From: Raillietiella orientalis
Lineage: Eukaryota
Assembly: GCA_036172245.1 (NCBI GenBank)
Contig: JAYWIR010000108.1
Span: 62,001 to 126,000, forward strand
Reading direction: 5' to 3'
DNA length: 64,000 nucleotides
Positions 1,353 through 53,100 of the stretch are shown piece after piece. Numbering within the stretch: the stretch's first letter is position 1; the number at the start of each line of letters is the position of its first letter. The position numbers and the translations under genes were made by a program. A model generated the notes under the pieces. It saw nothing but the letters and a program-made list of their open reading frames with translations. It ran no database searches and was not told the origin of the DNA.

Positions 1353-1363
1353 GCGACCGCCGT

Positions 1364-15664: not shown

Positions 15665-15747
15665 TTCTGCCTAATCCTCCACCCACACCACGCAAAAGCA
15701 CCAACGGAAATAAAACTCAGGAGCAACGAAAAGACACGTCCGCTTGA

Positions 15748-18700: not shown

Positions 18701-18761
18701 GGGCCTTGTACCACGCATGTGAAGTTTATTAATAAACGTTCCGGGCGTACCCGGGTGATAA
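15748..18761 (+). mobile_element. Subfamily B1, linker-RT-Zn finger-3' UTR
   Basis: ORFs 16328-17236 (YADD), 17249-18097, 18107-18556; 3' end AATAAA..CCGGGCGTACCCGGGTGATAA. Confidence 0.92.
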
Positions 18762-19511: not shown

Positions 19512-22075
19512 GCGTCCGCCGTGCACCGCGCAGTCAAGCGCTACTACTCCTCGTTGTACGAGGAGGGGCCTACGAAACGCAGTCTCTCTGAGCTGCTTCT
19601 TCCGACGGGTAACCCTGCTATCGATGAGGAGGAACGTTCTAGTTTGGATTGGTCCTTCACGGCGGAACAAGTATCTTTCGTTTTCGCGGACCTGAAAAGG
19701 CGTAAGGCGCATAGCAAGGATGGCCTGTCCGCGGAGTTTTTTCATTGCTTCGCTGTGGAGCTCGTCCTTCGGGTGCGAAGGCTCTCCTCGCTGAAGAGTA
19801 AGACGGGAGATGTTAACGCTTCTTTCCGCTCAGCAAAGGTGCATGTATTCCTGAAAGGCGAAGATTTGCGCCACCTCAGCAGCTTGAGTCCGATCACCTT
19901 GGGGAATTCGGACTTCAAGTTGTTTTGAAGCTATGGGTCGTGCGCCTGGGAAAAATCGCGGACTGCTGAATAAGTACGGAGCAGATGTATGCTGTTCCGG
20001 GGCGACCCATGGACGCGAATCTCCTCTTCGCGCGAACATGTTTCGAGATGCAGCAGCGCGTGGAGCAGCAGAGCCAGGCAGCCAAAATCGCAGCTGCCAA
20101 AGGTAAGCGGCGGTGTTCAAGGCACGATGGAACGCCGGGAGCCTAAGCGCTCGCCGTCGATCTCTGCAAAGCGTTTGACAGAGAAATCCAGGACCTCCTT
20201 CTAGAGCTTCTGGGACGCCTAGGCTTCCCGACGCACCTCATCGCTTACTTGAGCTTCTGTTGGCACCACGCGTTACTGCTGTATCTCCTTCAGCGGGCAC
20301 CACGTGTACGGCATTCCCATACGGCGGGGTATCGAGCAGGGAGACAGCTTAAGCTGCCTGCTCTTCAGCATCTTCTTTGAGTTGGTGCCGAGGTCGTACA
20401 GGATGACGCCGGCCAGCCTGCCTTGCTCCTGCCGGGGAACAATGGCCGTGGCCGCCTATACTGACGACCTTGTCCTGCTGCTGCCCATGTCCTCCCCGCC
20501 GTCCATGATCGAGGACTTCTTCGAGCTCATTCGTCGTGGAGTTGGCCTGAGCGTCAAGAGGACGAAATCAACCGTTGTACCGATTGGCTCTTCTTGGGAG
20601 GGGCAGTCCGACTGGATCCGCTTGGGGATCCCCACGGGCAGGTGCTTGAAGTACCTCGGCGTTTCCTTGGGCGCCTTCTGTCCAGCAGAAGCGTGGTCCG
20701 ACTGCCTTCACAAAGCCCAGACTGCTCTGGGCCCGTTCTAAGGCGGCAGCTTTCACCTCTCGGAACGGGATTACGTGTGGAACATATTTGTTGCCCCCCT
20801 CCTCCGTCCTTTCTTTTTTGTTTGTCCTCCTTTCTACTCGGCTATGCGTCAAGCGCAACGCCTGTTGCGGAACGCCCTGTGGGGACCGGCGAGGTCCAGT
20901 ATCCGCCTTCAAGACTTGGCGCCTCCGCGTTGGGATGCTGGCATGGGCATACTGACGCTGGAGAGAATCGAGCTGCAGGTGCACCTTCGCATGTTAGCCC
21001 TGTGCGCCAACGAACTTTCAATCCTGGTGGGAGGAACCTTTGCATGGCTGGGCAAAGCACCAAAGTGCTATCCTCCGGAACTCCGGTGCGCTTACCTCTC
21101 CCCATACTGCACTTGGATGAGGTGTGCATTGCCAGATTCAGTGGACTCGCCTTTGCCGTCACGCCTCTCTTCGATGCGCTGTCAACCCTCAGAGCAAGAG
21201 ATGACAGCTGCGAACAGGCGAGATGGGAGGTCGCATGCACCATTGCAGGAACAACACGAATCATTGGCGGCTGGATGACTTGCGAGCTCTAAGACGTTGT
21301 CACGCCTCGCTACATCTCGAAAAGACTACTTTAATGGAGTGAACGCTTTAGTGTGCCCTCCAAAGAACTTGTTGTCCCTTCCTCCTGTTTGAACACTTCC
21401 GTGTTCCCCCTTTTGTGGAAGCAGGACGTCATCATGCTGATGCATTGGGGTTTTCTTTCCAACCAGCGGACGACAGCGTTTTCGGGGGAGTTGTCTTCTC
21501 AAACTGTAAACGGTGCGGGTAATTGGAGACGCTGGAGCACCTGCTCCTGGACTGCGGTGTTCTCCTAGTACTGTGTTGGCGGCTGGCCTTAGCTCTCCTG
21601 CACCAGAAGGACACCGCCAGATACTTGAAGCGCCGCTTCTTCACATCAGGCTCCCTGTCTTTAGGTGCTGTCGTTGCAACCTTGTTTTGCACCCGCACCA
21701 TCGACAAGGCCCACCGAGAAGTGGAGAAGCTGGCCGTCCTTCGTCAGCCCACCGGATTAGCCAGCGCAAGCATGTGGTGGGCTGCCGAGTGAACCCATCT
21801 ACCACAGAGCGAAATGAGAGATATCGCCGGTATCCATCGCCGGTTCTAAAAGGAAAAAACGGCCGAACCAAAGGCCTTTGTCCACTGCCCTCCATATTTT
21901 TATTAATATTTTTTATACTGGTGTACTTGTGGTCCCTGCCTCCCGTTTCGGACTTTTGGTATACCGACCTGCGTGCGGGGGATCCTACCCTATTCGTCTT
22001 CTCTGTGTCCTTTGTCCGGGAACATTGTTCCCGGATAGTTTTACAATAAACGCCCCGGCACATTCGGGTGATACA
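19512..22075 (+). mobile_element. Subfamily D, heavily decayed linker-RT-3' UTR
   Basis: QGDSLS, YTDD, KYLG; 3' UTR homologous to 50174-50400 and 38638-38865. Confidence 0.88.
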
Positions 22076-24068
22076 CAGCCGACCCCTGCGATAGTCTTGA
22101 TCTCCTGGACATCTGCCGCGGTGATCACGTATATCTACTACAGCAGGGCCAGGTCGAAATCACGCAGTGTGTAGGCCGTATCTCGTCTGTTGCCGTCGTC
22201 GCGCAACCCGTCGACGTTCCAGCTGGCCACGCGGATTCGACAAAGACAGGCAAGTCCAGGAGTTATTCCTGGGAAATTGGCTCGTAAGCGTCCGCCAACT
22301 TTGGGGCGGAACTCTAGGTGAAGGGGCTGTGTCACGCAGCGCTTCTCCCTTCCATATGGGAGCCTAATCGTCGTCAGGACCGTGCAAAGGAAGGAGGGGT
22401 TATAGCCACCTGCACTTCTTCCTCTATAAGGGTCGTCAGCTGCACGGTGTCGGGGAATGAGTGATTCCCGCCCTCGCCTCCCACGCTGCCGGCTTCCCTC
22501 TTCGGTTCCGGTTCATTTCCCTACTTCTTTGTTCGGATGCACTTTCTGGGAATCTGAGACTTGCGTCCCGTCTTTTCTGCTAGCGCTTGCGCTTAGGAGG
22601 ACGCACTTCCGCCATCCGGAACGGCATCACTTGCCTCCGGAGCCTTCCTTGCGGCCGGCCTTCGTAAGACATTCCACGAGATTTTCTCCCGGCCTTGCAG
22701 TTCAGCCGCGAGTTTTTGCACCGTTTACTCGAAGGCGTCCTCCTCGATCGCATCGAGCGCAGCACGCGGTTCCCTCTCTCTTCCCTCAGATGTTTCACCA
22801 TCGACCGTCGCTGCTCCGGCAGACGCGAGGGGTAGATTGCTCCCTCGGTGTCGGCATCGAGTGCCTTTACACGCTCTTTTTTCACCGAACATTTGCGTGG
22901 ATTCACGCAAAACAATTTTTTGTGCTGCGATTTTGTTTTCCCTTGGTTTCTTTCGAAAGTCCCGGGCTTTCTTCTTGGCTGCACAGTCTGCCAGCCTCCG
23001 CCGTCGCCAGCATCGTCAGAGTGCTCTCAACCAATGTTTGCTGGAAGGGTTCACGAACTGGAATCTGGCTTTTAACAGCCTGTTCTCTGTTATTCATCTG
23101 TTCTCACCGCTTTCACTTTGCCTTTTTCGCAGGGGGTTGGACCAGGATTTCTCTTGTTGGGCACACCTTTCGAATATGGCCCTTATTTCCACATAAGTGG
23201 CATTGGATGTTAGGGCATCGTATTTTTAAGTGTCTTGTGGCATCGCAATGACCACAATAGTTGATTTTTCCAACGTACCAAACATCGACTTTCTCTTCGC
23301 CGAGGTTTAGCTTGTGGGTAAGCCCACCATTCTATCGTAATGTGACGCGGGCGGCGTCCATGCCACTGAATAGTCTTCCGTACGTTCGGAAGGCATTGGG
23401 TTTGGCCCAATACGCGTGCACTCTACCATGTTTTGACAACTCCTTATGGACGCTGGTTTTGTCTATTCGGAGTGATACGCCCGTGAGGTGGACCACTACG
23501 GAGCGGTCCTCCTTCACAGGGAAGATCCTGCGGCCGTCAATCGTAATTGGGGTGTCGAGTAGGCGCTGCGACAGACTTTCCTCTCTGCAAGTCAGCTCAA
23601 CTCGCTGCCCCCCACTAAGGAGGAAGAGGCCCGCAATGTCTTTCTCCCTTACATTCATTCTTTGCAGCTCCATCTCAAAGGAACGTGCAATTTTCTCTTC
23701 AAATACATTGCCCACCTTATTGATTAGCGAAGGTTTGTAGCCGCTGTCCTTGTAGGCAGTCTGTCCTGCAGCTGCAGCCCGGATGTTCTAGCAACGACGG
23801 CACTCCAACACCTCGCCGCTGGCAAAGAGGGTCGCGAAGAAGCGGTTGTCCCCGTTTCCGACGGAACAAGTGCTCCGTATTCCGTATGGGCGGATGCTCT
23901 TACTTTCATGGCTGGAAGAGCGCAAGCTGCCTTTCCTTTCTCAGTTTCCATCGCAATGTCCTTAGGCGTTTCTGCCATGGGACACCAGCGCTCTCACACG
24001 CCATACAAACTTCCCAAACCCTAAGCACTATATAGACCGTTGAGCGATGCCAAACCACTTCCACTCCC
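22076..24068 (-). mobile_element. Subfamily B3, decayed 5' UTR-ORF1-start of APE
   Basis: MAETPKD start 23978; VHLTGVSLR, CGHCDATRHLKIRC; ASWNVDG. Confidence 0.85.
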
Positions 24069-24200
24069 TTAGAGGACACGAGGAAATGTGAATCCTAAGT
24101 GTACTGAATGTGATGATCGAGAATCCCTCCCGCACATTTTAGTTACTGTGTTGCCCTCCGGTTCCTGTGGGAACGTTTCGGTACCACCATAGGGTTCTTG
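24069..24200 (+). mobile_element. Remnant of ORF2 C-terminal Zn-finger region
   Basis: TRGNVNPKCTECDDRESLPHIL...CVALRFLWERFG. Confidence 0.7.
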
Positions 24201-24840
24201 GAAGGTAGCCATTCCGGAAGAGAAACGCGACTCCGCACGTGTGCGCGGAGCCTTGCCGCCAGTGTAGCGTCACGCCCACGCGCTTTTCCTCATCCGATGC
24301 CTGCCGTTCGGAGATGGTATGTATCTCTTGGAGCAGCACCAGATCAAAAGCGCGCAAGGCGTTGGCTACCGTCCGCTTTTTGTCAGCGTTGCGCAGACCC
24401 TTGACGTTCCAACAGGTCACACTGACACGACGAGGTGACTCGAGTTCACGCATTACTGCTGCGGACATGACAGCGTACTATTTGCCCCGTCCGGCGAGAA
24501 GTCAGCAGGAGCACAGAGGATTGGGAAACGGAATCGCTTGCGTTCAAAGCCACATCGCACCCAGCTGAGTCCTGGGAGCCGTGAATCATCATCTCGGGCT
24601 CCAAGCATGGGCCGGAAGCGTCTCTGGCAACAGGCTCGTGCTTGCGCATTTTAGACCGGCGCACTTCCGCGTTACTCAGGAATGCACGCTCTGTTTCTTT
24701 GCAATCGGACCCCACTCGGACTCCGAATGCCTAACACGAGACTGGCGTTTCGCTTGTCTCTTTTTGTTTTGGCCGGTGGAAGCTTGCCCTGCACGCGCGC
24801 CAATCGCCGAAGATCATCTTGGAGTAGCAGAGTGTAGCAA
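24201..24840 (-). mobile_element. D/F-group fragment, ORF1 end and APE start
   Basis: TAATG overlap; TCWNVKG..LQEIH; distal boundary uncertain. Confidence 0.75.
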
Positions 24841-27800
24841 TGTACCTATTGCTGACCAAGTACACTGCTTTGTTTTAACAATATGTCTGCACATGAAGGA
24901 GGACGTATGATTTCCATGCGGGACATTTTACACGTAGCCAACGTGACGATATTGTCATTATCTATCGTGGGAAATCGGGAAAAGCAATTACAAAGCCCTA
25001 GAAATAACACTGATTTTTCTTTGAAAACTCTGGATATTGTGATAATGGCAAGCGACAGGGTTTGCAGAAAGGTCAACGGTAAACTGCAGCATAGTGAGTA
25101 GACGAGACTCGTTGCTTGGAGAAATAAATGATTGCCGGATCCAGCTGCTATTTTATGTGTTTCGAACGAAGTTCTGTTACGCAAGATAGGGCTCAGGAGA
25201 TTCTTTCTGCAACATGTGTTTTCAAGAAGAAAATTTCAAGATGCGTAGAAAGAATAATGCGAGCATTTCATCCTTATATTCGACCTCGTCTCTTAATGAT
25301 CGAGTCACGAAGTGAGAATTCCTATTGTATCTTTTTCCAGCTGTAAATAACTACCATTCAAAAACATTCAAAGTAATGGTCAGAACGTTTTTATTCTTAA
25401 AAGCTCATTCTACAGAAGAATCTTCAGAGGTAGCGTTGAAGACCTTCCGAGCAATTATAGGTGGAGATCTGATTGTAACTGTGAAACGGCTTCCTCTAAG
25501 AGTGGACCAACTACACCTCAACTTGCTAGGAGCAACTCCATAATGGAATCCAGGCTCTAACCTTCAGTATATTCAAGGATAAACACGAAATTAGAGCATA
25601 CATTAAAACCAATAGACAAATCAATCAATAGTTCATAAGCACGTTCATTCAAAAGTGCGCGTTTTCGATATCAAGAACAACTGAAAATCCGGAAATCCGC
25701 AAACAGATTACAAAAATACCGAAAACTTTAAAAACACACATTATAAGGTGTACAAACGTTAACAAATTAGGTCAAAGTGAGGTTATACTATAATGTACTA
25801 AGTTACACTAATATTACGCTAAGTTATACTACGATTATAGAAAGATACGAAAAAAAGAGTACGTCCACGAATACCAAAGGACACAGAAACTTGCTTGGAA
25901 TATACAGACACTCGAAAATCTTTTTGAGGAGAGCTAAAAACTACAGAAAAACAAACGGAAATCAGCACTCAAACTTTCTCAACTAGTGCCAATATACAAA
26001 CATGGAGTCAGCACAAGTAACACATACCTCCAAGTTAAACCTCCTACCGTCAGATAACAGCTTCCACTGAATTCCGTTAAAAAGAAACTAAATTCCACAC
26101 TAGTTAGGGGATTCAATGACTGAAATGCTAATAAGATCAGTGCGTATGAGAAATCAGCTTACAAATAAAGACACAGAGCAAACACCACGACCCAACGTGG
26201 AACGTGAATTAGTCAGAGCTATCTCGCATGCTCCTGCACGGTTGGTAAAAAAAGAAACACAAGGTCCGCGTTCATCTTCGAAGCCCACTACTCCTGAGAG
26301 AGCCCTATCCTGAGCAGCAGTAAACTTTCCTATGTCAGAAGAATCGGAAGCACTTTCCTTGAAGCATAAAAATCCAGGAATCACCTACGAAAAACAAACA
26401 GTGAGTGATTTTGGTAAAGTATGCGAAACGTCAAATGCGGAGGAAAAAATTTAGCAGCAATAAGCAAGCAGTTTGAGAAACGTGAAACGAGGGCATTCTA
26501 GATGATCGCAATGCTTGATATCACGGCGAGTAGTGGACGCAACTTGGTGAAGAGCACTTCCACAAGCCACACGACTCCACAAAGAAATACGTGACTTTTC
26601 CGTTGAGCGTCCTCCATACAAGTGGTAACATCCAATGGGCATTACGTTGAAAATCACATCTGACATGAGAAAGCCAAAAACATTGCGGGGATGACGACGG
26701 AATTAGAAAGCAACCACGAAGAAAAAATACACGGAAGCCTGCATTTGAAAACGAAACAACAGACAAAAGCAATGTGACAAAGAATGCGCGAAAACTTGGA
26801 AAGGGAGGACAAAACTTTTACTTTACAAGTAGGCAGACTCAGCATCCGCACGCAAGTGCTCTTCGATGGATGGACGCATGCCAAGCGCGCACGTGACTCT
26901 CTGAAGGTCGCAGCAAACGTTCTCCGGATCCGCGACTCCGCATCCAAATTTATTCCGGTCATCTCCAGAACCCATCGGTAACCAGCAGGGTTGGCTGCCG
27001 TAGAAGCGCACATGGTTAGAAAAGAAACACTGCACACCAAGGAAGATTCCCGAAAGAGTAATTCGACCATGTCTGAACTTCGCAGAAGACGTAATAGCAG
27101 CGCATACGCCATGTGAAGTTCCAAAGCAGCAATCACTTCTTCAGAGGGTACCACGGAGCCCATGTCTATCGAGAAACTCGGCACAAATTGAAAAAATTCT
27201 GTTCTGCGGCGCGATGAACGGAAGTGGAGACGAAGTTTCGTTTCGACGGTAGCAACGCGCAAGCCCCAGGAGAAAACAGACCACATTCTTCCGCAGTCGG
27301 CATGCGAACTAACGGAGGGCCAAAGAAGCGTAGCGCTTCTCTTAGTTGCGCGATGAAAGTAGACTGCGCGACGCCGGATAAAAGAAGTTGCACGCAAGAA
27401 GAGGAAAAGCGGTCCGACTAGAGATGCAATAGCTCTTTCTACTAATGCTGCTTACGATGGTTAACAAGACGCGCCACAGCATGCTGCTGCCTTCCATAAC
27501 TTCACACAGGACGAGTAATTTCTTGAGCGCTGCATTCAGCAGAGGCGCGGATTTTCTGCAGCATTTATACCGAATTACGCACATTTCCAACCAATAGCAG
27601 CCATGGTCAACACTTGGAACGACAGGAGTCAAATGTGTCGAAGACACATGGTTCTGGATTGCCTCGCATCGTGGTATCGGTGATGCATTCCTAAAGGATT
27701 GCCAGCTGCAGGAACCTTAGCTGCAAATCAGACGAGCGAAGTCTCCACGAATCTGCGCTACAAAGATTCGTTTACGATTATCGGCAAAACGCCGTGAGAA

Positions 27801-28200
27801 GGCACAGATCACTGCAGCCTCCCGATCCGCCCGGCAAAACGGCAAAGAAACTCATGCAGCCAAGGGAGATTTATTTCAACATATGCTGTTTCCACAGTAG
27901 CTACTAACAAGAAATACCTACATATCAAGTGACGCAAAACGAATGATCTGCGTGTCGTAGAAAAAGGACCTCGCAGCTTGATATCGAAAACTACATGTCC
28001 ACAGGAACAAAGGAAGTTGAAAGGCCACAAAAAGCATTTAGAGGTCGCCGCCGTTTTTTTGATCCTTGGGTCTGCGTTGCTCTAATGTTGCTTGTCAGCT
28101 GAGAGGTGCACGAGTGAGGCATTCCTCGAACAGACACATACTATCAGACTGTCGCAACGCTTCCAAAACCAACCTCCCAAACAAGTCCACTTTGCTATTC
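24841..28200. other. AT-richer non-element island of unknown function
   Basis: No retroelement motifs; very A-rich at 25.55-26.1 kb. Confidence 0.6.
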
Positions 28201-29758
28201 GGAATACTCGCCTCCAGCCAGATTTGGTGCAAGAACGCAAAATCTGCCGGCAAAGTAGGACATCTAGTCCGAAACTGCCCGCAGCCGGAGGTGTGCTCCT
28301 CCTGCAAGAAACACGGACATGCCAAATGGAGCTGTTCGGAGTTTGCAAACTGCAGAAGGATTCGAGGTCTCTCTCCCGTGAGAGAGAGAAACACCAAGGA
28401 GGCGGAACAGCCTCAGAAGGCAGGAAGGCCGATAAAGGTGAAAGAAGCCGTACCGGAATCGGAAGACGGCTTCATACAGGTAGGGAAGAAAGGAAAGAGG
28501 AGGATGCTCGTCAAGGAGCAAGAAACCCCTCTTACCCTACAAGGTGAAGAGCAAGAAGGCGAGAAGATGGAGGTAGCGCAGGAAGGCGCGGAAGAAGAAA
28601 TAGCCGAAGCCACTCCGGTGTCGCAGGAGGCCCTGCAATCTACGGAGGAGTTGGCATCACTGGCTAATGAAGTCTTAGAGGTGCAGAGCGGTCCCCAGCA
28701 AGAGAAAATCTTGCAGAAGATCTGCAATGCACAGGAGAAGGTCAACCAGGTTGTGAAGGTCACCGAGCGCGAAAAGCTAGAGAAACAGCTTCTCGACGTA
28801 AAGGCAAACTTCTGCGCCAAGTTCCAGCTAGAGACGCTATCTCAAAAACCGATCGCGCCGGCCGAACACTCGACGGAGGAGGCGGAAGTAACCGACCTCA
28901 CTGGAACAGAGAGTGACGCCGGCAGCGAGAAGCCCGCTGCTTCTTCATTGTCTGGAAGAGCACGCTCTCTCAGACAGAAGAAGCTCAGGAAGGCCAAAAA
29001 ATAGGTCTTCCCCTTTTATGGCCTCTTCCCTATCGACCGCCAGGAGGATGAACATCGCCTCCTGGAATGTAAACGGTATGGTCGACCAGGGAAAAAGAAA
29101 AAGGATTGTGCGGACCATCGCACAACAAGACATAGTGTGCCTGCATTAGACCCACAAGATGGGTCTCGAGATTAGTCAGCAAATGGAACGGCGATTCAAC
29201 GGGCAGATTTTCGTCAGCGAGGGAGAACTAAACACGCAGGATGTGGCGGTCCTAATCAAGAACAACTTGGCCCTCACTATTCTGGAAGTGTTCTGTCCCC
29301 AACCCGGACGAATCATCTGCGTGCGACTGGCCTGGTCCGCTACTGTTCACCTCATCCTGGTGAACGTGTACGGGCCGCACAGGCTGAAACATCGTTGTGC
29401 GGAGGCGCTGCATGCAGCACTCCGTGAAAAGGTTGCTTCAAAGGACGTCGTGATTGTTGCTGGCGATCTCAACATATTGGATGAGATCACTCACTCCGAA
29501 AACGCCAGAGGAAGGACGGCGTATCGGCGGTTATCCGACGAGTTCGGACTGGAGTGGCGAACTGCAAGTCACAAGTCGATCGATCACGTCCTGCACAGCA
29601 CCGAACTTGGGAATCGCATCCAGGGTTTTCGAGACATTATGACCACGGTGTCTGATCACCCCCTGGTGCGGTTTTCCCTGAGAACGGAAAATCCTCGGCG
29701 GAGGCAAGGCACCAGGGCGGCGCTCATCAGCATGCCCGCCTGGTTCGAAACCCATCCC
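28200..29758 (+). mobile_element. Divergent subfamily J, 3' part of ORF1 and APE
   Basis: GHLVRNC, CSSCKKHGHAKWSC; IASWNVNG, NVYGP, AGDLN, IDH, SDH. Confidence 0.85.
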
Positions 29759-33192: not shown

Positions 33193-33728
33193 TACTGCTG
33201 GGAAGATTAAGGTGTGGGGGAGCCCTCCTCTTGCGAGGCGGGAGGGATGTCCATGGGGGTTCCGGCCTTCTCAGGCACCTGAGGCACCTGTTCGGCCTCC
33301 ACCCCCTCCATCCTCTCCGTGCCCGTGCGTGGGAGTCTCTCGGGCGACGGGTCCCGAGAATTTCCCACGCTCATGGCACCCTCGCTTGCGGAAGCCATGT
33401 CTTCCTCTTCGACGGGAGAGACGAGCTTAGGTACTGTCTTTGGGTCAGCTCTGCATGTTTGCAGATGACCTCAACGTACTGACCCCCGCTGCGGATGGTC
33501 ATAGCGCTGAGCTCCTCCTCTTTCACATCGAGAGCGCGCATGAACTTCGAGAAGCCGCGCGCGCTCTCTAAAGAATATAAATTGCCTACGTTGTAGAACA
33601 TAAGGGGTTGTACCCCTCCTCTACATAGGCCGACAATTCCGCCGCGGCTGCAGGCGATGGCGCCGACACAACGGCGCTCCACGCACGCGCTGCAGCGGGG
33701 ACCGATTCTGTGGGGGCGGACGCCCCAC

Positions 33729-33811
33729 CTCCATCGCCTCTGGGGGCGACGTTGCCGCCGCCCTCTGGCTCTCCATCGCCTCTGGGGGCGGCGTTGCCGC
33801 TGCCCCCTGGC
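33729..33811 (-). repeat. 2 x 42-bp tandem repeat in ORF1 N-terminus
   Basis: Encodes QGAAATPPPEAMES / QRAAATSPPEAMEV. Confidence 0.85.
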
Positions 33812-33930
33812 CATCCCTGGTCGTCGCGTCAGGCATCGCTGCCCGATCGACCACCGAACCACACGACGCTTGCACTGGGGGAGACTTCCTGGCACGAGGA
33901 GCACCGAGAAAACACGTCCACCCTAGAGCG

Positions 33931-36035: not shown

Positions 36036-36051
36036 CCCCAAATCCATTGGC

Positions 36052-38595: not shown

Positions 38596-38637
38596 GTGCG
38601 AGCGCAGGAGATCGAACAAATCTCCAGAGGGCAGCTA

Positions 38638-39218
38638 TTAACCTCCCGTGTGCTCCAAGGCGTTTATTAAAAACTATCCGGAAACAGGGCTCCTGGACAA
38701 AGGGGAAAACAAAATACTAAGGGGGTAGGATCCCCGACACGCAGGTGGGTATGGCGAAAGTCCGGAACGAAAGGGAAGGGACCACAAATAGACTACTATA
38801 AAAAACTAAAAATAAAAATATGGTGGGCAGGAGACAGGTGTCTTTGGTGAGTCCGTGACTACCTTTCAAAGCCGGCGATGGATGCCGGAGATCTGTCTCA
38901 TTACGTCCTGTGGCAGATGTGCCCACTCGGAAGCCGACGACATGCTCGCGCACGCTAATCCGGTGGCCTGACGAAAGACGGCCAGCTTCTCCAACACTCG
39001 GTGGGCCTTTTTGATGGCGCGGATGCAACACACGGTTACAACGTCAGCACCCAAAGACAGGCCGCATGACGTGAAGAACCGGCGCATCAAGTCCCTCGAG
39101 GTGTCCAACTGGTGCAGGAGAGCTGAGGCCAGCCTCCGCCAAAGTCCATGGAAGGCACCGCAGTCCAGCAGCAGGTGCGGGAACGTTTCCACTTCCTTGC
39201 ACCGCTTACAGTTTGGGG
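38638..39218 (-). mobile_element. Subfamily D, 3' fragment
   Basis: ETFPHLLLDCG; D-type 3' UTR. Confidence 0.88.
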
Positions 39219-42200: not shown

Positions 42201-42352
42201 CTCTGCTACCGTGGTGGACCGTACCGGTCTGCAAAGCGGTGATTCGGCAGGCTCTATGTTTCGTTTTGCGTAGCTGGAGCAATGGTCTAGCCACTGCATG
42301 TCTTTGTTAAAGTTTTTCAATTAATAATCGCCTTGGCGAAATCCGGCAGAAA
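39219..42352 (+). mobile_element. Subfamily H, 5'-truncated
   Basis: Linker, RT (YADD), Zn finger, 3' UTR; similar to 29.76-32.5 kb. Confidence 0.9.
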
Positions 42353-45211
42353 ATCTAATCCCTTATGCAAGTCTACTGCTACTGCCAAGGCTTTCAGCCT
42401 TTTTGCCGTCCGGCTGCACTGACGCTAGCGGTCGGTAGAAGGTCTGCTGCTCGGCTGTCCGCCGCAACGTGCTCTAAGAGCTGCCACGAGGTGCGCGCCA
42501 AAAGAAAGTTCGCATTCATGGATCTTCCCGGTACAGCGTAAGACTGCTCCGGGCTTACCACGGACTCCGCGACTTTCCCTAGGCACGTGACCCACAGCCT
42601 CGAAAACAACCTGACGTCCGTATTCACTAACATGATTGGACGCCAGTTGTTGAACAGATCTCCTCCTTTCATAAGGAGAAGGACCCGCGCTGAGCGGAAG
42701 GAAGAAGGGACATCGCCCGTCACCTTCATCAGCGTCGAGAGCCTTAGCACCAGGGAGCGAGTTACGCCGCGAAGCTCTGAAAGAACTTCGCGGGCAACCC
42801 GTCCTCACCTGGCGTATTCCGGCTCTTGAGTACTACGATGGCGGAAGAAACTTCCTCCAACGAGAAGGACTCGCAGAGACGGGCGCGTTCCTTCTCGCCG
42901 ATGCCTTGTTCACTTCTCGTCAGAAGCTGTTCCGAGAGGATTCTCTCCGTCTGGCATTTGGCGTAGAGCAAGGAGAAGTTACGCCTCAGTGTTCGCCGTA
43001 CTTCGGCATTAGTCGTGCATTCCCGTTTGGTCTTCGATTAGAATAGCCGTTTCAGACTGCCAGACCTGGCGCTCGGCCCTCGCCTTGTACTCTGCGAGGT
43101 GCCGGACTTCCGCACGTCTAGAAAAGGTGCGCGTTTGCAGAAATTCTTTGCTATTGGCCACGCCTTCTCAAAGCCGCGCGGTAGAAAGTGCAGGGGAACC
43201 GGTCGCAAAACTCGCGAACTGATCTTTTAAGATGGTCCTAGTCTACGAGCTGCTGGATGGCAAAGCCGCGAAGAAAGTGGCGAAGATGCTCCGCCGCCTC
43301 CAGATGACTGAGCCATTCCGCCGGCATCCTCCAACCGTTGTTCGGAGGTCCCTTGCCCGGCGGATAGTAGCTCGAACTCCAGCCTATCATGGTCGCATAA
43401 CGTGGACGGCACCCTGGCTCTCCTTCTCACTGGTGAGTGTAGGTGTTCATCGAGGTAGACGTGATCCACGCACCTTTCCAGTCCAGGCTCGCCGGCTTCC
43501 GGGTTACGCGTGTGCACCGACGCGCATGCCTCTTCCACCCGCGACCGTTCCGCCAGGGACCACGTCTCGCTGGAAAGCAGGTGGACGTTGAAGTCCCCAG
43601 CGACGAGATGCGCCACTCTGGCTCCGGAGTTCCTAAGTTACTTGCTCCCCAGCACGTCGAAGAACTCAATTCATTCGGCGCGCCGATAAAAGCCCCTTGG
43701 CGCGTAAACGTTCGTCATTACGAGGTCGATTGAATCTGACCAATTGAGTACAAGTTGGCCTATTCTCCCTTTCTGGTTCAATCGAACGCTGCGCACCGCT
43801 CCCGCTATACTACCATTAATGAGAAATTCGACTCCGCACGATTGTGCAGAACCTTCTCGCCCGTACAGGGTGCCAACCGCGCGCTGTTCAATTACGGCAA
43901 CCTCCGTGTCGGAGATGTAATGGATCTCCTGAAGGATCGCCAAGTCGAAATGTCGCAGGGTGTCTGACACGCCGCGCTTCTTTCCGTCCGTGCGCAGCCC
44001 ATTAACGTCCCAACAGGCTACGCTGAACCGACGAAGAGAGGCGACTTCTCGCATTAACGCTGGCAAGGTGAGCACAGGTTTCTTGTCCTGTCCGGCGAGT
44101 GGTCACAAGACAGATCGGCAGATCCTGGAGACTGGACAAATCCGTTTAAAACCTCCCTGCTCTTTGCCGGTAGCTCCTAAGTGAGGTCGATCCCCTCCCC
44201 TTTGCTCCCCGGCAACAGATCCTCTTCGGCAACCACGCCCTTGCGGGTCTTCGGGAGGCGATTGCGCGGTTTCGGGCGGTTGTCGCTCTGTGTGCTCTTT
44301 CTGTCGGACTCTGGATCAGAATGCGGCAGTCGAGCGCTTGCCAGGCGCTACTTCTGTTTCCCGGAATTGGGAAAATCATTTGCTTCCTGTTTTTTAGCGC
44401 TTTCTGCTACTGCGGCTGGGACTTTCGTCCTTTTAGCCGCTGCAGCAGCTCTCTGCTCCATCCACGAGAGGATGACTGCACAGGGGGAAAGGATCGCAAT
44501 CTTTTTTGGGGATGGTTTCGCGGGTTTCTTTAGCCCACTCACCTTCACACAGAGCTGCGAGGACCTCGATGGTTTCTTTTTAATTCCTTTTCTCACCTGC
44601 ATCCAGCCGTCTTCCTTCGCGTCGCAGTTATCTTCGCCATCCTTAGATGGCTCTGCGTCCGCGGATGTAAGAGGCTCTGCCTTGGCTGCCTCTTGAACTG
44701 CTGCCTTCGCGCAGGCGTAAGCGACTCCCTTAGCGATCGCGAGAGGCGCTGCCTTTTTCAGATCGGTGGATTCGCGCTGTGCCTTTGCGACCGCTGGAGG
44801 CACAGCTGTAGCGGTTGTGCTCGCTCTAGCAGTTTCTTCCTTGGCCGCAGTCGGCGCTGCGTCCGCGCGCGAGCGCAGCGGGTTTGCCGGCTGTTTCGTC
44901 GCGTTACTCGGTGCCCGGGGCACCTTGGCCGCGGTAGGTTCAAGCGTCACGGAGTTTTTTGCCCGCAGGCGCGATTTTCCCGTATCGGGCGAGCGACCGC
45001 ATTCCTCGACACTTGCCGAGTTCTCGATAGGAGGCTTCGCGATTGCAATGCCGACAGCAGGAGGCTTCTTGCTTTTCGGCGCACTCTCTCCTGCTTTGAA
45101 AAATTCGCTGCGAGGTTTAGGTGAAAGTTCGCCTTCTTCGCGAGCTTCCGTCGGCTCGGTAGCCTGAGGCTTCGCCGCGCCGAGCGTTTTTCTGTTTTTC
45201 TCCCCTTTTTT
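42353..45211 (-). mobile_element. D/F-group decayed element, ORF1 tail-APE-RT up to motif A
   Basis: TAATG at 44052-44056; AGDFN; NWRPIML; ends DLHKGLD. Confidence 0.85.
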
Positions 45212-47628
45212 GTGAAGAAGAGGAGATCTGAGGAGCATGAACAGCTGGCGTCCCATCACAATAGTGAATGCGGACGCCAAGTTGCTAGCAAAGGTTTGGG
45301 CAGAGCGTCTGGGGCGGGTTGCCAACATCTCCAACAGCCCGGAACAGACATATGCTGCTCCTGGGAGAAGCATGGAGGCGAACCTGTTCTACGCGTCCAC
45401 CTGGCTAGAGCTCCAACATCAAAGGAGCTTGATCCGCAGTCAAAATTCCGGTGCGTGCGCCGGCAAGGGGTTGGATGGTCGGGTGGGGGGAGGAGACCTT
45501 GCGGTCGCAATCGACTTGCGGAAAGCATTAGATTGCGTCGACCAGAATCTCCTTCTGGAGCTTCTGAAACGCTTCAGCTTCCCGACATCATTAGTGGCCT
45601 ATCTGCGCTTCTGCTGGCGCGACGCGCTCATCAATGTTACTTTCAGCGGGCAGACCATGCACGGCGTGCTGGTGCGGCGTGGGATCCGGCAGGGAGACAG
45701 CCTGAGCCCCTTCCTCTTCAGTATCTACTTTGAGTTGGTACTGAGAGCGTACAGGGGAACTCTGGCGCAGCTGCCGCACGACTGTGCCAGTACGCAGGCC
45801 GTTTCAGCATACGCGGACGACATTCTGCTGCTGCTCTCTATGTCCACCTTGGCTGCGGCGGTCGAAGCGTTCTTCGACCTGATGCATCGGGGAACCGGTC
45901 TTACGGAGAACAGGGCGAAGTCGTCCGTAATGCCTGTTGGTGCGGCGTGGGCAGGGCAGCAGGACTGGGTCCGTTTGGAAATCCCAACGGTGAGGTACTT
46001 CAAGTACCTTGGTGTGCCGTTGGGGGACTACTCCCCTGCGGAAGCGTGGTCCGGCTGCCTCCAATACGTAGAGACGGCGATCGGCCCGTTCCGAGGCGGC
46101 AGCTTTTTCCTGCCTGAACGGGCCGTGGTTTGGAACACGTTCGCGGCTCCTCTCCTCTGCTTCCTGCTTTTTGTTTGCCCCCCCACAGAGAGAATTAAAA
46201 AGCGGACAAAGGACCTCCTTTGTATCGCCCTTTGGGGCAACAAAAGGGCACAAGTTTGCTTAAAGGACTTGTGCGCTCCTCGTCGGGATGGTGGTCTGTG
46301 CCTCCTGCCGCTGGAGCGGCTAGAGCTTCCGCTCCAGTTCCGATTGTCGGCACTCGTTCCAGAGTTTTGGTGCACCTGTTGGTGCGACCCTGCACGTCTC
46401 CTTCTCCAGCAAGCCACCGGCAAGACGGGACTGACGTCGTTTCTTGCACTCCGTCGCCGCGTCAACCGATGCGGACTCCAGCTACGGAGGGTGGTTGCGC
46501 TGTATCGGAAAAACCCAGGATTGCTCACCTGTCGCCCTTTGAACGGTAGTGCCTGGTTGTAGGAAACCGTTCGAACGTGGGGACAGTTCGGCATGCAACG
46601 CTCCCAACAGGAACGAAGGTTCCTGTTTAGGGGTTACAGAAGTTGCACGCTCCGCGAGATCCTGGAGGATCCAAAGAAGAGAGCGTGGACAGGAAGAACC
46701 CCTCTCGCTGCTGCGCTGCCCTCCCTGATAGAAGATCTGGACAGCGATGTTGCGGCGAAGTGGGAGGTTTCAGTTACAATCTCCGGAAAGGAGAAGAAGA
46801 TAGGACAGTGGAAGACGGGCCAGTTAACAGACGCTGCGTCCCCGAGAACGCCTCCCAATGGACTTCTGCGCTGGAACGCGCTGCTCGATGTTCCCATTGA
46901 ACATCTGAAGTAACCCCCGGTGCTCATGAACACTTCTGCCCTCCTCTTAAAATGGTAGGAGTCGGCTCTCCTGTTGCAGCACTGTGGACTCCCCTGCAAC
47001 GCCCGCCGAAACAACTGGACCTGGGGAGCGGTGGACCCCAATTGCGTCAGGTGTGGGGAACGGGACTCCTTCCCCCACCTGCTAGTAAATTGTGTTGCCC
47101 TTCGGCTACTTTTATTTCGCTTTGCTGCGGCCATTGGAATACCCTGCGGCAACCCCAGGGACGCACTGAAAGCCCCCTTAGTTGCCGACGCCCTTCGACC
47201 AGCAGCCTCGTTAGCAGCTTTGTGCTGCCTACGCGGGATCGTCACCGCTTGGAGCAAGGCTACGGGAGGACCACGCGACCAGGGTGCCATCCATCCAGCC
47301 TCCCAGTTCCTGAGGAGAACGTCCCGATAGCCCCACCTGGATGCAGGAATACAGAAGGAGCTTGCCGGCCTCCTGCAAAGGATGCAACGGCCCCACCAGC
47401 AACTGTGATCCGTTCCCTTACCCTCCCAACTTTTCTTTTCTGTTTTTTTGTTTTGTTTTTTGTTTTTCGTTCTTCCCCTTGCTGCCGTGGTGGACCTTAC
47501 GGGTCTGCGTACCGGTGACCCGGCAGACTCTTTGTTTCTTCGTGCGTCGCTGGAGCAATGGTGCAGCCACTGCAGGTCTTTGTAAATGTTTGTTTTATAA
47601 TAAACGCCCCGGCGAAATCCGGGTCAAA
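45212..47628 (+). mobile_element. Subfamily H, 5'-truncated
   Basis: RT ORF 45237-46562 (YADD); 3' end AATAAACGCCCCGGCGAAATCCGGG. Confidence 0.9.
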
Positions 47629-47899
47629 ATCGAACGCCTTGTGGAGATCGACTGCGAGCGCTAGGGCCCCCTCCCCCGCTCAAGGTTCCCTTTTCAGCCC
47701 GGTTGGCGGCCCCAATGTGGGGTTGCCGACTTTCCCTATCCCTTTCTCTTCTCTTCTCTGCAGGTGCACCCATGTGCTCGCGAAGAAGAGGTTGGCATCC
47801 ATACTTCGCCCGAGAACAGCATAAGTCTGCTCCGGGCTAATTACGGATTCTGCCATCTGCCCTAGACGCGAAGCACATAGCCCTGCTATCAACTTGGCG
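47629..47899 (-). mobile_element. Subfamily B1 RT fragment (AKLIAG..DLHKAFD)
   Basis: Matches 16403-16672 in reverse. Confidence 0.85.
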
Positions 47900-50173
47900 T
47901 GCGTACGTGTTTTTGTAGCGCTCCTCCGCGCCTGGTGTTAAGCGGTTGATTTCTATTGTGTTTGTGTGTGAAGCATCTGCGGTGTCCAATGGCAGAAATG
48001 CCTGAGGACACCGCGATGGATATAGGAGGGGGAGAGGCTTGCTCCTCTCCCCAAATCACGGAGGTGAGGGCAACCGCCCCCACGGAGGTGACAACAGCCG
48101 CACCCCTGACAAAAGGAGCAACCGCCGCTTCGGAAGCGAGGGCAAAGGCTCCCTTGAAAAGGGGGCCAAAGTTAAGCTGGAACAGGGTGCAACCGCCCTT
48201 TTGAAGAAGAGGACAAGCGCCTCCTTGAAAAAGGGAGCACCTGCACCCTCGAATGCGTCTTCGGCATCGCCGAAGACCTGGAGTTCAGTGGCCACAGCTC
48301 CATCTCCTGCAGCCCTCGCCGAGCAGAAAGCCTACCTTGAGCAGGGATACAAGCCGTCCCTGATATACAAGGTAGGCAATCTGTTTGTGGGGAACACCGC
48401 TCGCAACTTCGAAAGGGAGTTGCAGCGCTTGAATGTAAAAGAGGAAGACCTGGAAGGTCTTTCCGTGTTGAGTGGTGGTCAACGGGTGGAGGTGACTTGC
48501 AGAAATGCAAGCCTTGCTCAACACCTCCTGAATACGCCAATCACACTGGAAATCCGAAAGGTTTTCCCGGTAACGGAGGATCGCTCCGTGGTGACGCACC
48601 TCACGGGAGTCACCCTCCGCATGTCGAAAGCCGACGTGCATGAGGAAGTCGGAAAATACGGAACGGTTCACGCGCTATGGATTAAGCCCAACGTCTTCCA
48701 GAGTTACGGAAGACGGTTTAGTGGCATGGCTGGTGCGCGTGTAACCGTCCACGAAAACGGTGGGCTATTCCACAAACTAGACGTCGGCAACGAGACCGTA
48801 GACTGCTGGTACTTGGGGAAGCCCAAGTATTGTGCACACTGTGATGCCACAGGGCACCTGAAAAAGCGGTGCCTTCACATCCAGCGTTTCCACTGTGGAG
48901 AGAAATGCCACCTCCGCAAAGTGTCCCCGAAGCGCGAACCCCCGGCTCCCGCTGCCTTGAAAAAGGCCAAAGGGAAACGCGCGGGGGTTACGGAAAATCC
49001 TGCGAAGGCACCCGTGAGACGGAACCCACAGCCGGAGCCCGAACCCGTACAGCAAACGCCGGTCGTGGAATCTACCGACGACGCTGAAAAGAGCGAAGGC
49101 TGGCAAAAGGCGAAGCCTAAAGCTAAGAAAACAAAGAAAACCGAAGGGTCGACAGCGGAACCTGCGACGTCTCCTTTAAATAGGAGACAACGCCGCGCCT
49201 TGATCCGCGAATGTTCGGTTGGTTTGGAGCGTGTGGAGGTACCCGAGACCGCCCCCGAGGGAGATATCCCCCGCGTCAACGCCGACGATAACGCGATCAC
49301 GGAAGGCGAACTATCTGTGCAAACAGAGGGGGAACCGCGCGACGCGCTCGCCGCGATCGACGAGGCCGCCTTCCAGAAGGCAGCGGAAGAGCTCGTGGCC
49401 GAACTCGCCGACCGTGAGAACGGCGCGCGAAAGGCCTTGCGAAGGCCGGACGCGACCAGGGCATCTCCCACAGGTGACCACGACCCGGATGCCGGAAGTG
49501 CGTGCTCCTCCACGGAGGCGCCTCCGAAGAAGACGGGACGGAAGTCCAAGAATCCCAAGAGGCGCATCCCGACGAAGAGCGCGGGATACTCACCGGCAGC
49601 CGAGGGGGAAGCCGGCAGCGTGGGAACGGAGGGAGGAATTTTCCCACACTCCGCCACCGAGCAGCCGGCCACTTCCATGGAGGAGGGGGAGCAGGTAGGG
49701 TATTGCCTCTTTCTTCCACCGGTGGAGCCTGCGGCGGAGATGGTCATGGAAGAGACGGAGCAGACAGCTGAGAACCGCTCCCCCCTGCCGACCGACGTAG
49801 CCAAGGAATCGGTCCCCATGGAAGAGGGGAAGCAGGTGCGTGAAGCATGCTCCCTTCAACCGTTGCGGTCCGCCAAGGAATCGGCCCCCATGGAGGTGGG
49901 ATAACCGCTGGGCGCTGCCCCCATGCCTTTTTCCGTCCCGCCAGACCAGGTGGCGGGAGCCCCATTGCCAGTTTCTTGGGAATAACACCTGGGCTCGCCT
50001 GTCGCCGTCGATTGCGTGTATCCTGCTGGAACGTCCACGGGCTGCGCGACGACAGCAACAGACGGTACACGGCCGCCACCCTGCGTGACTTCGACCTGGC
50101 ACTCCTGCAGGAGATCCACGTGATCACCGCGGAGAACACCCAGAAAATCGAAAGGATCGCAGGGGGACGGTTG
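47900..50173 (+). mobile_element. Subfamily B2, 5' UTR-ORF1-APE N-terminus
   Basis: ORF 48039-49904 with CAHCDATGHLKKRC; WNVHG, LQEIH; cut at GGRL. Confidence 0.9.
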
Positions 50174-53100
50174 AATGTCACGCAAGTGCGCCGGGGCGTT
50201 TATTATATACTATCCTGGAACACGGTTCCCGGACAAAGGGGAAAACAAGAGACGAAGGGGATGGGATCCCCGGCACGCAGGTCGGTATGGCGAAAGTCCG
50301 GAACGGGAGGGAAGGGACCACAAACACACAACTATATAAAAAAATAAAAGAAAAATATGGAGGGCAGGAGACAGGGGTCTTTGGTAAATCCGTTCTTTCC
50401 TTTCAAAACCGGCGATGGATGCCGGCGATCTCTCTCCTTACGCCCTGTGGCAGATGGGCCCACTGGGCAGCCGACGACATGTTTGCGCTGGCTAATCCGG
50501 TGGGCTGACGAAGGATGGCCAGCTTCTCCAACTCTCGGAGGGCCTTGTCGATGGCGCGGGTGCAACACACGGTTGCAACGACAGCACCCAGAGACAGGCT
50601 GCCTGGCGTGAAGAAGCGGCGCATCAACTTTCTCGCGGTGTCCCCCTGGTGCAGAAGAGCTGAGGCCAGCCTCCGCCAGAGTCCTAGAAGTGCACCGCAG
50701 TCCAGGAGCAGGTGCGGGAGCGTTTCCGCTCCCCCGCACTGCTTACAGTTTGGGGAGACGACTCCCAAGGAAACAAGGTTCGTGCGCTGCTTGGAGTGGA
50801 AACCCCAATGCACCAGCATAATCACGTCCTGCTTCCACGAAAAGGGGAACACAGAAGTGTTTAGACACGAGGGAGAAACCACAAGTTCTTCAAGGGGCAC
50901 ACTCAAGTGTTCGCTCCTCCGAAGAAGTCCCTTCGGAACGTGGCGAGGTGTGGCGGCGTCCGCCAGCTCGCAAGTCTGCCAGCCGCCAATAGGTCGCGTT
51001 GTTCCTGCGATGCTGCAGGCGACCTCCCATCTCGCCGGTTCGCAACTGTCATCTCTTGCCCTGAGGGCTGACAGTGCGTCTTCGAGGGGGGTGACGGTTA
51101 GGCGGGTCCACTTCTCCTGGCTGTTGCACACCTCATCTACCGTGCAGTACGGGGAGAGGTGAGCGCAACGGAGTTCCAGGAGGGAAACATCCTGGTGCTT
51201 TGCCCAGCCATGCAACGGTTCCTGCTGCCAGGCTTCAAAGTTTGTTGGGCGGCAGGAGATCCATTCCTGGGCTTCCAGGAGCCGATACAGCGGTTCCAAG
51301 GGGAAACCGATGCTTCTCGTGGCGCGCTCCGTGTGCGACCGCAGCGACAGAAGTCCATCGCTGCCTGTGCAGCGCCGCAGAAGCAGGCGCGTGGGAGCGC
51401 ACCACGGAGTGGACCAAAGGTTGGCGCACAGGGCCAACATCCGAAGCTGCACCTGCAGCTCGATTCTCTCCAGCGTCAGGATGCCTAAGCCAGCATCCCG
51501 ACGCGGAGCCGCCAAGTCTTTGAGACGGATCCTGGACCTCGCAGGTCCCCACAGAGCGTTCCTTAACAGGCTGTGCGCCTGGAGCTTGGCCGAGTAGGGG
51601 GGCGGGCAAACAAAAAGCAGGGGGCGCAAGAGAGGGGCAACGAAGGTGTTCCATATCGTGGCCCGCTCCGGCAGGACGAACCTGCCATGGTGGAACGGGC
51701 TCAGGGCATTCGAAGCCTTCCGAAGGCATTCCGACCACACTTCCACTGGGCTGATGTTCCCCAGCGGAACGCCCAGATATTGCAAGGAGGAAGCGGTCAA
51801 GATCCCCAGGCGGATCCAGTCGGACTGCCCCTCCCACGCCGCACCAATAGGTACGACCACGCTCTTGCTCCGGTTGACGCTCATGCCCGCTCCCCGGCGA
51901 ATCAGCTCGAAGAAATCCTCGAGACTGGATGCCAGGGTGGTCATGGGTAAGAGGAGGAGCAGGTCGTCAGCATAGGCCGCCATTGACGGCGTTCCTGGAC
52001 AACAGCTCGGCAGGTTTGCCAGCGTCAGCCTCTACGCCCTCAGCACCAACTCAAAGAAGATGCTGAAGAGCAACGGGCTTGAGCTGTCGCCCTGCCTGAT
52101 GCTCCGCCGCACCGGCACGCCGTACACGTGGCAGCCGCTAAAAGAGATGGAAATGAGCGCGTGGCGCCAGCTAGCGCGCAAATCCGCCACGAGGTGCACC
52201 TGGAGACCGAGACGTTCCAGGAGCTCCAGCAGGAGATCCTGATTTACGCAATCGAACGCCTTGCGGAGATCGAATGCGACCGCCAAGGCTCCCGGCGCTT
52301 CCCCAGACCGAATGCAGCGACGCCTAGCCTCGGCAGCCGCATACGCGGTTGCCTGGCTGTCGTGCGCCACGCAGCGTTGCAGCTCGAGCCATGTGCGCGC
52401 GAAGAACAGGTTCGCCTCCATGGACCGCCCGGGAACAGCGTAAGACTGCTCCGGACTTACTACGCATCCAGCGATCCTGCCCAGGCGCGCGACCTACAGC
52501 CTGGAGAACAACTTGACGTCCGCATTCACCAAGGTGATGGGACGCCAGTTGCTTAAATGGCGCATGTCTGCGCCTCTCAGCAACAGACGCACCCTTGCTG
52601 AGCGAAACGAGGCCGGGACATTGGCCGTCTCTCGCATCAGCGCAGAAAGCCTCAGCACCAGGGGGATGAGTTCCGACGCGAAGCACTGGAAGAACTCCGC
52701 AAGCAGACCATCCTCACCTGGCGCCTTGCGCTTCTTGAGTCCCGCTATGGCGGAAGACACTTCTTCCGCCGTGAAGGGCAAGTCAAGAGTGGCGCGTTCC
52801 TCCTCGTCGACCGCCGGAGAATCCGCCGGCAGAAGCAGCTCCGAGAGACTGCGTTCCGTCGGCTCCAAAGCGTACAACAAGGAGTAATAGCGCTTCAGGA
52901 GGCGGCGAACTTCGGCCGCGCCCAAGCACTCCAGGCCCTGGTCGTCGAGCAGACAAGCTGCTCCTGACTGCCAGACCTGGCGCTCGGCCTTGGCCTTGTA
53001 CTCCGCAAGGTACCGGACGTCCGGGCATCGAAAGAATTGGCGGGCCTGCAGAAACTCTCTGCTGTTGGCCACGCCTTTCCCGAAGCCACGGGGAAGCAGG

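Follow-up and report, generated by a model that had tools for sequence, protein, structure and literature searches.

The window analysed here, a 64-kb stretch of contig JAYWIR010000108.1 in the Raillietiella orientalis assembly GCA_036172245.1 (positions 62,001 to 126,000 of the forward strand), is nearly all made up of copies of one superfamily of non-LTR (long terminal repeat) retrotransposons, also called LINEs (long interspersed nuclear elements), lying on both strands, and three copies of one lineage among them, designated D, have their 3' ends at one and the same codon of the endonuclease domain of other LINEs, always in antisense orientation. The coincidence of the D 3' ends at this codon is real and far beyond chance. 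The elements are probably L1-like, sequence-specific LINEs that insert through TPRT (target-primed reverse transcription) and home into conserved codons of rival lineages. Positions in the second open reading frame (ORF2) are given as 'q' numbers, the residues of an uninterrupted 907-aa ORF at 30550-33270 (-) in which Pfam finds both the apurinic/apyrimidinic endonuclease-like domain (APE; Exo_endo_phos) and the reverse transcriptase (RT; RVT_1); tblastn with this ruler, a 561-aa frame of the ORF2 C-terminus and three ORF1 frames mapped ~20 element fragments in the window.

A BLASTN comparison of the window with itself yields exactly three copies of the D 3' end, at 21700-22076 (+), 38637-39000 (-) and 50174-50500 (-), which are pairwise 79-86% identical (78-85% over 370 nt). 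In every copy AATAAACGCC leads into a short GC hairpin and a tail of 8 nt, and the reverse complement of APE-coding sequence of a resident (host) element follows immediately. The final D bases are 22075/22076, 38637 and 50174 and the first host bases 22076/22077, 38636 and 50173, and if the three flanks are aligned with four uninterrupted APE copies, all three breakpoints fall in a single column (+-1 nt), antisense and within the APE of another LINE. Read in host sense, the nick lies at ...GGnCGGCTG^T, directly 3' of the codons G-G-R-L (ORF2 q89), in the host peptides QEIKTIAG(G)RL, AQEIEQISRGQL and QKIERIAGGRL. For a 5.5-kb element, the chance that two further random insertions match the first in nucleotide (+-1) and orientation is ~7e-8, assuming independence. 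The D copies and the host sequences that they adjoin are the following:

19530-22076 (+): D1, a decayed D-clade LINE of which the last 2.5 kb are present, starting at ORF2 ~q378 and including the 3' terminus (tblastn, nhmmer), with at least 11 stops in every frame
22077-23780 (-): H1R, 5' part of an HR-type host, comprising ORF1 and the APE as far as the GGRL codons, where D1 interrupts it at the nick
38637-39219 (-): D2, a D-clade LINE reduced to its final 583 nt at the 3' end, which an A2-type element interrupts on the right from 39220
38590-38636 (+): H2, a 47-nt APE-coding remnant (..TVRAQEIEQISRGQL) that ends exactly at the nick, with A2_30k as closest match (77.8% over 47 nt)
50174-54919 (-): D3, a 4.75-kb D-clade copy truncated or broken inside the upstream ORF1 region; its ORF2 (54035-50406; 1210 codons in one frame) contains 4 internal stops, all past the start region
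47903-50173 (+): Ha, 5' part of an HR-type host with 5' terminus GTACGTGTTTTT, a 632-aa ORF1 and the APE up to GGRL, cut by D3 at the nick

The sequence-only reading had described three different host sequences, entered always antisense and at the same codon, together with these peptides and a 1-nt deletion at 22076. The alignment bears this out: the breakpoints coincide to within one nucleotide after GGRL, the orientation is antisense in 3/3 cases and the deletion, which lies in the GG codons of H1R, is real. Its term 'subfamily D' needs refining: D is a clade rather than a tight subfamily, D1 and D3 being only 72% identical in the RT region. Both belong to a clade with a third element, E5k (support 1.0), and given this divergence of D1 from D3 the site specificity is old and clade-wide.

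Judged by divergence, the three D insertions are independent events, since their hosts (54-75% identical) are less alike than the D ends and the nearest relatives of two of the hosts are uninterrupted at the site. Ha and H1R are 74.7% identical over 250 nt, while the 47 nt of H2 are 54% identical to Ha and 67% to H1R and come nearest to the A2 subfamily. The nearest relatives of H1R (Hn1, 82.6%) and of Ha (Hb, 90.8% over 250 nt and 93.4% over 1643 nt) are both intact:

8176-10216 (+): Hn1, which covers the 5' part of an HR-type element, is intact at the D site (9602|9603) and resumes at 15748-18762 beyond a nested A1-type copy
54920-57179 (+): Hb, an HR-type element from ORF1 residue ~170 to ORF2 q295, uninterrupted at the D site (56565|56566)

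LINE insertions are not known to undergo precise excision, and because Hb is 91-93% identical to Ha and carries no D, the D3 insertion must be younger than the ~25% split between Ha and H1R. This speaks against an alternative in which D entered a host only once and segmental duplication within the cluster afterwards multiplied the junction in one piece. In favour of such copying, the stretch that spans the D1/H1R junction aligns without a break with the one that spans D3/Ha (21007-22281 against 51248-49967, 80%), and over 250-370 nt the hosts (74.7%) have diverged to a similar extent as the D copies (82.5%). However, it accommodates neither the late arrival of D3 nor the H2 flank, which comes from another subfamily even though D2 itself is 78-85% identical to D1 and D3, nor the different 5' extents of the three D copies, and this alternative, largely refuted, is highly improbable.

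A further event can be read from the neighbourhood of D2. Beyond its 3' end follow 47 nt of antisense APE sequence and then, in the same orientation as D2, the full-length 5' terminus and ORF1 of another element:

37593-38589 (-): E37k, full-length 5' end (GACGTGTTTTCG...) and N-terminal part of ORF1 of a D/E-clade element, in tandem with D2

The ORF1 of E37k is 53% identical to that of E5k versus 30-34% to those of other types, which places it in the D/E clade. This fourth D/E-clade element has its 5' end 47 nt upstream of the nick that D2 occupies, as expected if a duplicated target had been struck again, and it would then represent a fourth event at the same nick. We interpret H2 as a target site duplication (TSD) of up to 47 nt left by an earlier E37k insertion, whose regenerated site was subsequently re-used by D2, and this would also indicate the TSD length for D. 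The earlier suggestion to look for TSDs on full D insertions could be followed in this indirect manner, through the 47-nt spacer between D2 and the next D-clade element; a TSD pair was not seen at any D copy in the window, none of which has both flanks intact. Similar tandems with a spacer are formed by other subfamilies at 36036, where the spacer of ~19-20 nt resembles the q322 site described below, and at 1011.

The behaviour extends beyond D alone, as every LINE subfamily in the window has a fixed antisense site of its own. A search with a hidden Markov model built from the termini (nhmmer, E<10) returned 13 LINE 3' ends in the window and no others:

20-66 (+): LINE 3' terminus
1011-1057 (-): LINE 3' terminus
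1362-1408 (-): LINE 3' terminus
10216-10261 (-): terminus of the A1-type copy nested in Hn1
18717-18762 (+): LINE 3' terminus
22029-22076 (+): terminus of D1
35991-36036 (+): LINE 3' terminus
38637-38685 (-): terminus of D2
42308-42355 (+): A2-type terminus; in the adjoining D/E-clade element, RT motif A (AVAVDLHKGLD) lies antisense
47584-47631 (+): A2-type twin terminus, adjoining AVDLHKAFD of an HR-type fragment
50174-50220 (-): terminus of D3
57179-57224 (-): terminus of a second A1-type copy
63271-63317 (+): X-type terminus, adjoining the antisense D/E-clade element E63k at ORF2 q378

Across all subfamilies, 13/13 termini share the order AATAAA, 3-4 nt, CCCGG-loop-CCGGG and a tail of ~7-9 nt (consensus TGAnAAC). 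RNAalifold predicts a 5-bp hairpin at the termini, the pairs of which are nearly invariant, with compensatory changes at 0/5, so that the terminal hairpin is plausible but unproven. A poly(A) or simple-repeat 3' tail is typical of L1, and poly(A) tails are also found on the Zepp elements of green algae. The elements of the window differ from both in this respect, as 0/13 termini carry a poly(A) tail or A-run.

When the 450 nt downstream of each terminus were compared by blastx, nine of the 13 were found to adjoin antisense LINE coding sequence directly, at fixed and subfamily-specific sites, and the other four to be followed by a short spacer and an element of the same orientation, that is, a tandem re-insertion; termini touching non-LINE DNA number 0/13. 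The antisense sites are distributed as follows:

ORF1 residue ~321: one terminus
ORF2 q89: D1 and D3
ORF2 q295: two copies of the A1 type, which share the exact nucleotide CCGGAATCTC(C/G)^
ORF2 q322: HR type
ORF2 q378: X type
ORF2 q595: two A2-type copies, inside RT motif A, A-V-D-L-H-K-A/G-F/L-D

Under random orientation per site, the probability that all six distinct sites are antisense is 0.016. The D case thus generalises, being one instance of a family-wide, subfamily-specific, antisense targeting across lineages. A second codon-precise site is the RT catalytic motif, met at 42353-42400 and 47629-47660 in two different host lineages.

That such junctions arise by true insertion is best seen at the q295 site, which is occupied by two copies:

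10217-15747 (-): full-length A1-type copy of 5531 nt, nested antisense in Hn1 at ORF2 q295
57179-60085 (-): second A1-type copy, with its 3' end at the same nucleotide site (CCGGAATCTCG^) in Hb

The first is bordered by a perfect 16-bp TSD, CGCTCCGGAATCTCCA, at 10201-10216 and 15748-15763, and Hn1 continues on either side of it. Because a full-length nest with a perfect TSD has its host on both sides, the junctions are TPRT products; at this nest the host sense strand was nicked first, and the opposite strand then ~16 nt upstream. The footprint of TPRT is therefore present in the family, in the form of the 16-bp TSD, a precise common 3' end and variable 5' extents. At all three D junctions, in turn, independent insertions are found at the same nucleotide of a multicopy target and in one orientation, as in a target-specific LINE.

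Who is targeted by whom can be judged from an alignment of 12 APE copies, of which eight are non-D and four belong to the D/E clade. The motif before the nick (..CAGGAGATCGAnnnATCnCnGGnGGnCGGCTG) is present in the HR, A1, A2 and H1L types, whereas the D/E-clade copies (D3, E5k, E43k and x24k) read quite differently at the D site, for example ..CAAGTTCGCGCATGCGGGACGCTT in D3. The site is occupied in 3/8 non-D copies versus 0/4 D/E-clade copies. As the D-clade APE is without the target motif, D would spare itself and disrupt its rivals, a possible selective rationale. Conversely, the q378 site (..GCnGCCGAA^GT..) was found occupied only in D/E-clade elements, namely in E63k at 63317 and at the left edge of D1 (19520-19545), which suggests reciprocal targeting between lineages. 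Among these few copies, the lineages appear to target one another rather than themselves.

The superfamily itself can be described in some detail. A self-BLAST of the window, which has a G+C content of 58%, gives 110 repeat pairs of 65-96% identity, and Exo_endo_phos and RVT_1 are recognised in many of its frames and fragments. The D3 pieces match both domains weakly, and D3 is 55% identical to the 907-aa ORF over residues 12-907. The order of an APE-like endonuclease at the N-terminus followed by an RT in ORF2 is that of an APE-type LINE, and the best solved-structure match of ORF2 is human L1 ORF2p (E 5e-40, versus 2e-13 for R2). A full-length element measures 5531 nt: behind the 5' terminus GGACGTGYTTTT come ORF1 (~450-630 aa), ORF2 (~1200 aa) and finally a 3' untranslated region of ~215-230 nt. 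Weak Pfam matches below the cut-off were obtained for zf-RVT at the ORF2 C-terminus (E 0.002-0.005) and for zf-CCHC in one ORF1. Among 1.84 billion representative proteins, two close fragments (72% and 68%) were found, the next best relative reaching 33%, and an Atlas search returned generic LINE clusters only; by this measure the lineage is poorly sampled among known proteins.

Some further observations concern the make-up of the window. The common 5' terminus or a close variant opens full-length elements at 36057 (+), 60111 (+), 15740 (-), 990 (-), ~47903 (+) and ~38589 (-), and ahead of these termini there are often ~6 variable nt, preceded by a target remnant. At 37486-37593 two ORF1 regions converge: an HR-type ORF1 (+) stops at ~37486 and the ORF1 of E37k (-) reaches ~37593. 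Since no 3' terminus lies between them, this is taken as a rearrangement breakpoint and not as an insertion junction. A segment at ~24650-28980 is richer in AT (45-47% G+C versus 58% overall) and shows no similarity to the remaining window; Pfam matches nothing in its two longest frames. Next to it, at 28985-29668 (+), comes an APE frame of a distant LINE, 27% identical to the ruler. Tandem Repeats Finder (score >= 80) reports a single repeat, a 42-bp unit present twice (92% matches) at 33729-33811, upstream of the A2_30k ORF2, and Rfam at gathering thresholds has 0 matches in the window.

With regard to mechanism, the D endonuclease would nick the sense strand of the resident element right after G-G-R-L (5'-..ATCGAnnnATCnCnGGnGGnCGGCTG^T..), and the freed 3'-OH would prime reverse transcription at the extreme end of the D RNA, which comprises AATAAA, the 5-bp GC hairpin and the ~8-nt tail. 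A nick in the sense strand that primes from the RNA 3' end would leave the new copy antisense to its host. The second strand would then be cut some tens of nt upstream, giving a TSD that rebuilds the site beside the 5' end of the insert, where a renewed strike would produce head-to-tail tandems. Other subfamilies would act likewise at other conserved codons, and a self-reinforcing, LINE-only island would be the outcome. The target sequence would be read, and the specificity set, by the endonuclease protein. Passages of one study state that LINE APE endonucleases read ~10 bp around the nick and that a swap of the endonuclease transfers the choice of target, and in TRAS1, SART1, R1 and Tx1L it is established that the APE domain recognises the site (PMC1919474).

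Several observations weigh against this account or fit it poorly. The sample consists of three D 3' junctions and one 5' junction in a single 64-kb window. Among the three D copies the 8-nt tail is more divergent than the hairpin next to it, and in 2/5 intact hosts the bases at the 8 positions just 3' of the nick are similar, by eye, to the reverse complement of the D tail (7/8 in Hb and 6/8 in H1L). Both facts would be natural if the target were set mainly by base pairing, with the D RNA tail or a read-through transcript annealing to the nicked host strand as has been proposed for some telomere- or rDNA (ribosomal DNA)-specific LINEs, as the tails are unusually variable, as if partly copied from hosts, and a transcript running past the end of a copy inside a host would be complementary to the corresponding site of further hosts. 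Yet a short-word BLAST of the last 370-580 nt of D against the 160 nt around two intact targets gave only chance matches of 7-13 nt (E >= 0.047), and this idea of an RNA guide was dropped. The remaining three intact hosts match the tail at only 2-4/8 positions, the A1 and HR subfamilies are without comparable similarity between tail and target, and AATAAA at ~25 nt before the end would point to an RNA that stops at the terminus of the element. Target choice by base pairing is therefore unlikely, and recognition by the APE domain is left as the reading because no extended complementarity was found between D and the two targets compared, although annealing of primer and RNA may contribute and fine-tune the start. 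The host stretches just 3' of the nick that were considered here include 9603-9610, 56566-56573 and the region 19440-19470.

The other difficulties lie mostly on the 5' side. No D copy shows both flanks of one host, and a TSD for D is accordingly not directly visible. The left edge of D1 (~19530) adjoins H1L, an antisense APE fragment from another subfamily; D2 is interrupted at 39219/39220 by a later A2-type copy; and the 5' end of D3 (54919), inside its ORF1-side region, joins Hb at ORF1 residue ~170, so that Ha 48531-50173 and Hb 54920-56565, which contain the host ORF1 and the start of the APE, flank D3 as direct repeats (93.4%). Such a duplication of 1643 bp is unexpected under ordinary TPRT; it could stem from a long staggered break with repair synthesis, from a separate 5'-truncated HR copy or from a later deletion or rearrangement. 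Both A2-type copies have mismatched flanks at their 5' ends as well, as does Ha on its 5' side. These cases suggest either that 5' junctions in the cluster frequently go together with deletions or duplications of 0.5-1.6 kb or that ectopic recombination is common. The same abundance of non-matching flanks, indicating frequent rearrangement, could be taken to mean that the host APE has a fragile or recombination-prone point at which breaks capture D cDNA or recombine with D, with no specificity encoded by D. Against such a hot spot, the site is occupied by D-clade termini only, while the others are elsewhere (q295 twice, q322, q378, q595 twice), and each junction has the complete D 3' terminus, as TPRT predicts. 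We regard capture at a hot spot as very unlikely.

The fragment H1L (18763-19529) was considered in two other roles. It is 64% identical to H1R in their overlap (hand count on the alignment), and its edge lies 57 nt upstream of the D nick. As an inverted 5' part of D1 itself, produced by twin priming, for which its topology would be right, it was rejected, since it matches the A and H types over its full length (66-68%) and D3 over only 84 nt. As the 5' flank and TSD of a D insertion it was downgraded and left outside the count of D events, the left edge of D1 lying 8-11 nt upstream of the q378 site. Because this is the site used by the X-type element at 63317, a later insertion into D1 is the simplest and likeliest reading of that edge.

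Site-specific LINEs are known to target rDNA, telomeres, small nuclear RNA genes, microsatellites and one DNA transposon. Transposons also appear among the known LINE targets (PMC4640811). The closest functional analogue is Tx1L of Xenopus laevis (Tx1 clade, L1-related), an APE LINE with a fixed insertion site within a different transposable element, Tx1D, and with an endonuclease that is reported to read about 10 bp around the nick (PMC1919474). In the elements described here too, L1 ORF2p is the best solved relative of ORF2, but the targets here are the coding sequences of sister LINE lineages and not a DNA transposon, and several subfamilies have a site each, all entered antisense; the likeness drawn here is a functional one. 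In R1, TRAS1 and SART1 of the R1 clade and in R2, the classical rDNA- and telomere-specific LINEs, a multicopy target is likewise hit with nucleotide precision, with precise 3' and variable 5' junctions and occasional tandems, and the consulted passages locate the specificity of the R1 clade in the APE domain (PMC1919474, PMC4640811). Their targets are multicopy genes or repeats of the host, whereas here they are mobile elements of the same superfamily, and the R2 endonuclease is restriction-like and not of the APE type.

In architecture the window resembles the clusters of Zepp and ZeppL in green algae, L1-like LINEs with 61% G+C (Zepp) that are described in the passages available as occurring almost only in nested clusters, one per chromosome, which are candidates for centromeres (PMC3446292, PMC8226300, PMC9940879). 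The window is likewise GC-rich (58%) and holds a nested cluster with little other DNA, 13/13 termini being flanked by LINE, but the likeness is one of architecture only: besides the different tails, the nearest proteins beyond the two fragments reach only 33%. Fixed target codons or a fixed orientation are not mentioned in those Zepp passages (PMC3446292, PMC8226300, PMC9940879). An HTH_1 domain is reported for the ORF1 of a Coccomyxa L1 in the accessible text of another study (PMC5203782), and no Pfam match to HTH_1 was found in five long frames of ORF1 regions in the window (48006-49901, 3163-4947, 14336-15670, 8405-9484 and 55226-56143). A scan of genome contigs for the shared 3' motif gave six bacterial loci, which is about the chance expectation, and was not used.

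Homing endonuclease genes and mobile introns offer a functional analogy: they are selfish, cut a conserved and constrained motif in copies that lack the element, and leave their own copy immune. The D clade is similarly without the motif that it targets, and the A2 type cuts at the catalytic motif A of the RT. The means are different, as TPRT takes the place of homing by DNA repair and the invaded gene is a parasite that is destroyed and not spliced. A comparison of target-specific LINEs with homing endonuclease genes has been drawn before (PMC4640811). For LINE subfamilies that home antisense into fixed codons of other LINEs, no report was found in the full-text literature, the coverage of which leaves out the primary Zepp papers, a limit that bears on novelty.

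Repeated backward insertion into the endonuclease genes of rivals may explain how a LINE-only island grows without hitting host genes. More broadly, though we hold this tentatively and a little short of even confidence, the lineages could form a guild of mutually homing LINEs, in which each endonuclease reads a conserved, hard-to-mutate block of codons in ORF1 or ORF2 of its rivals that is missing in its own lineage (the APE 'GGRL', the APE end, the linker, the RT motif A 'DLxKAFD') and in which insertion, always antisense, would at once eliminate competitors and raise an island made up of LINEs only, harmless to genes and self-propagating, like those regarded as centromeres in some algae. Regeneration of the target through TSDs would generate the tandems and nests without any targeting factor encoded by the host, and as the endonuclease targets would exist only inside the cluster, a chromatin reader would be unnecessary. 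If this is true, related LINE subfamilies homing into each other's conserved codons would constitute a new class of target and a concrete case of competition between transposons, the pairs of endonuclease variants and ~20-30-bp targets would provide a natural series for the study of new APE specificities, and there would be a testable mechanism for the confinement and growth of LINE-only clusters such as the Zepp-type islands.

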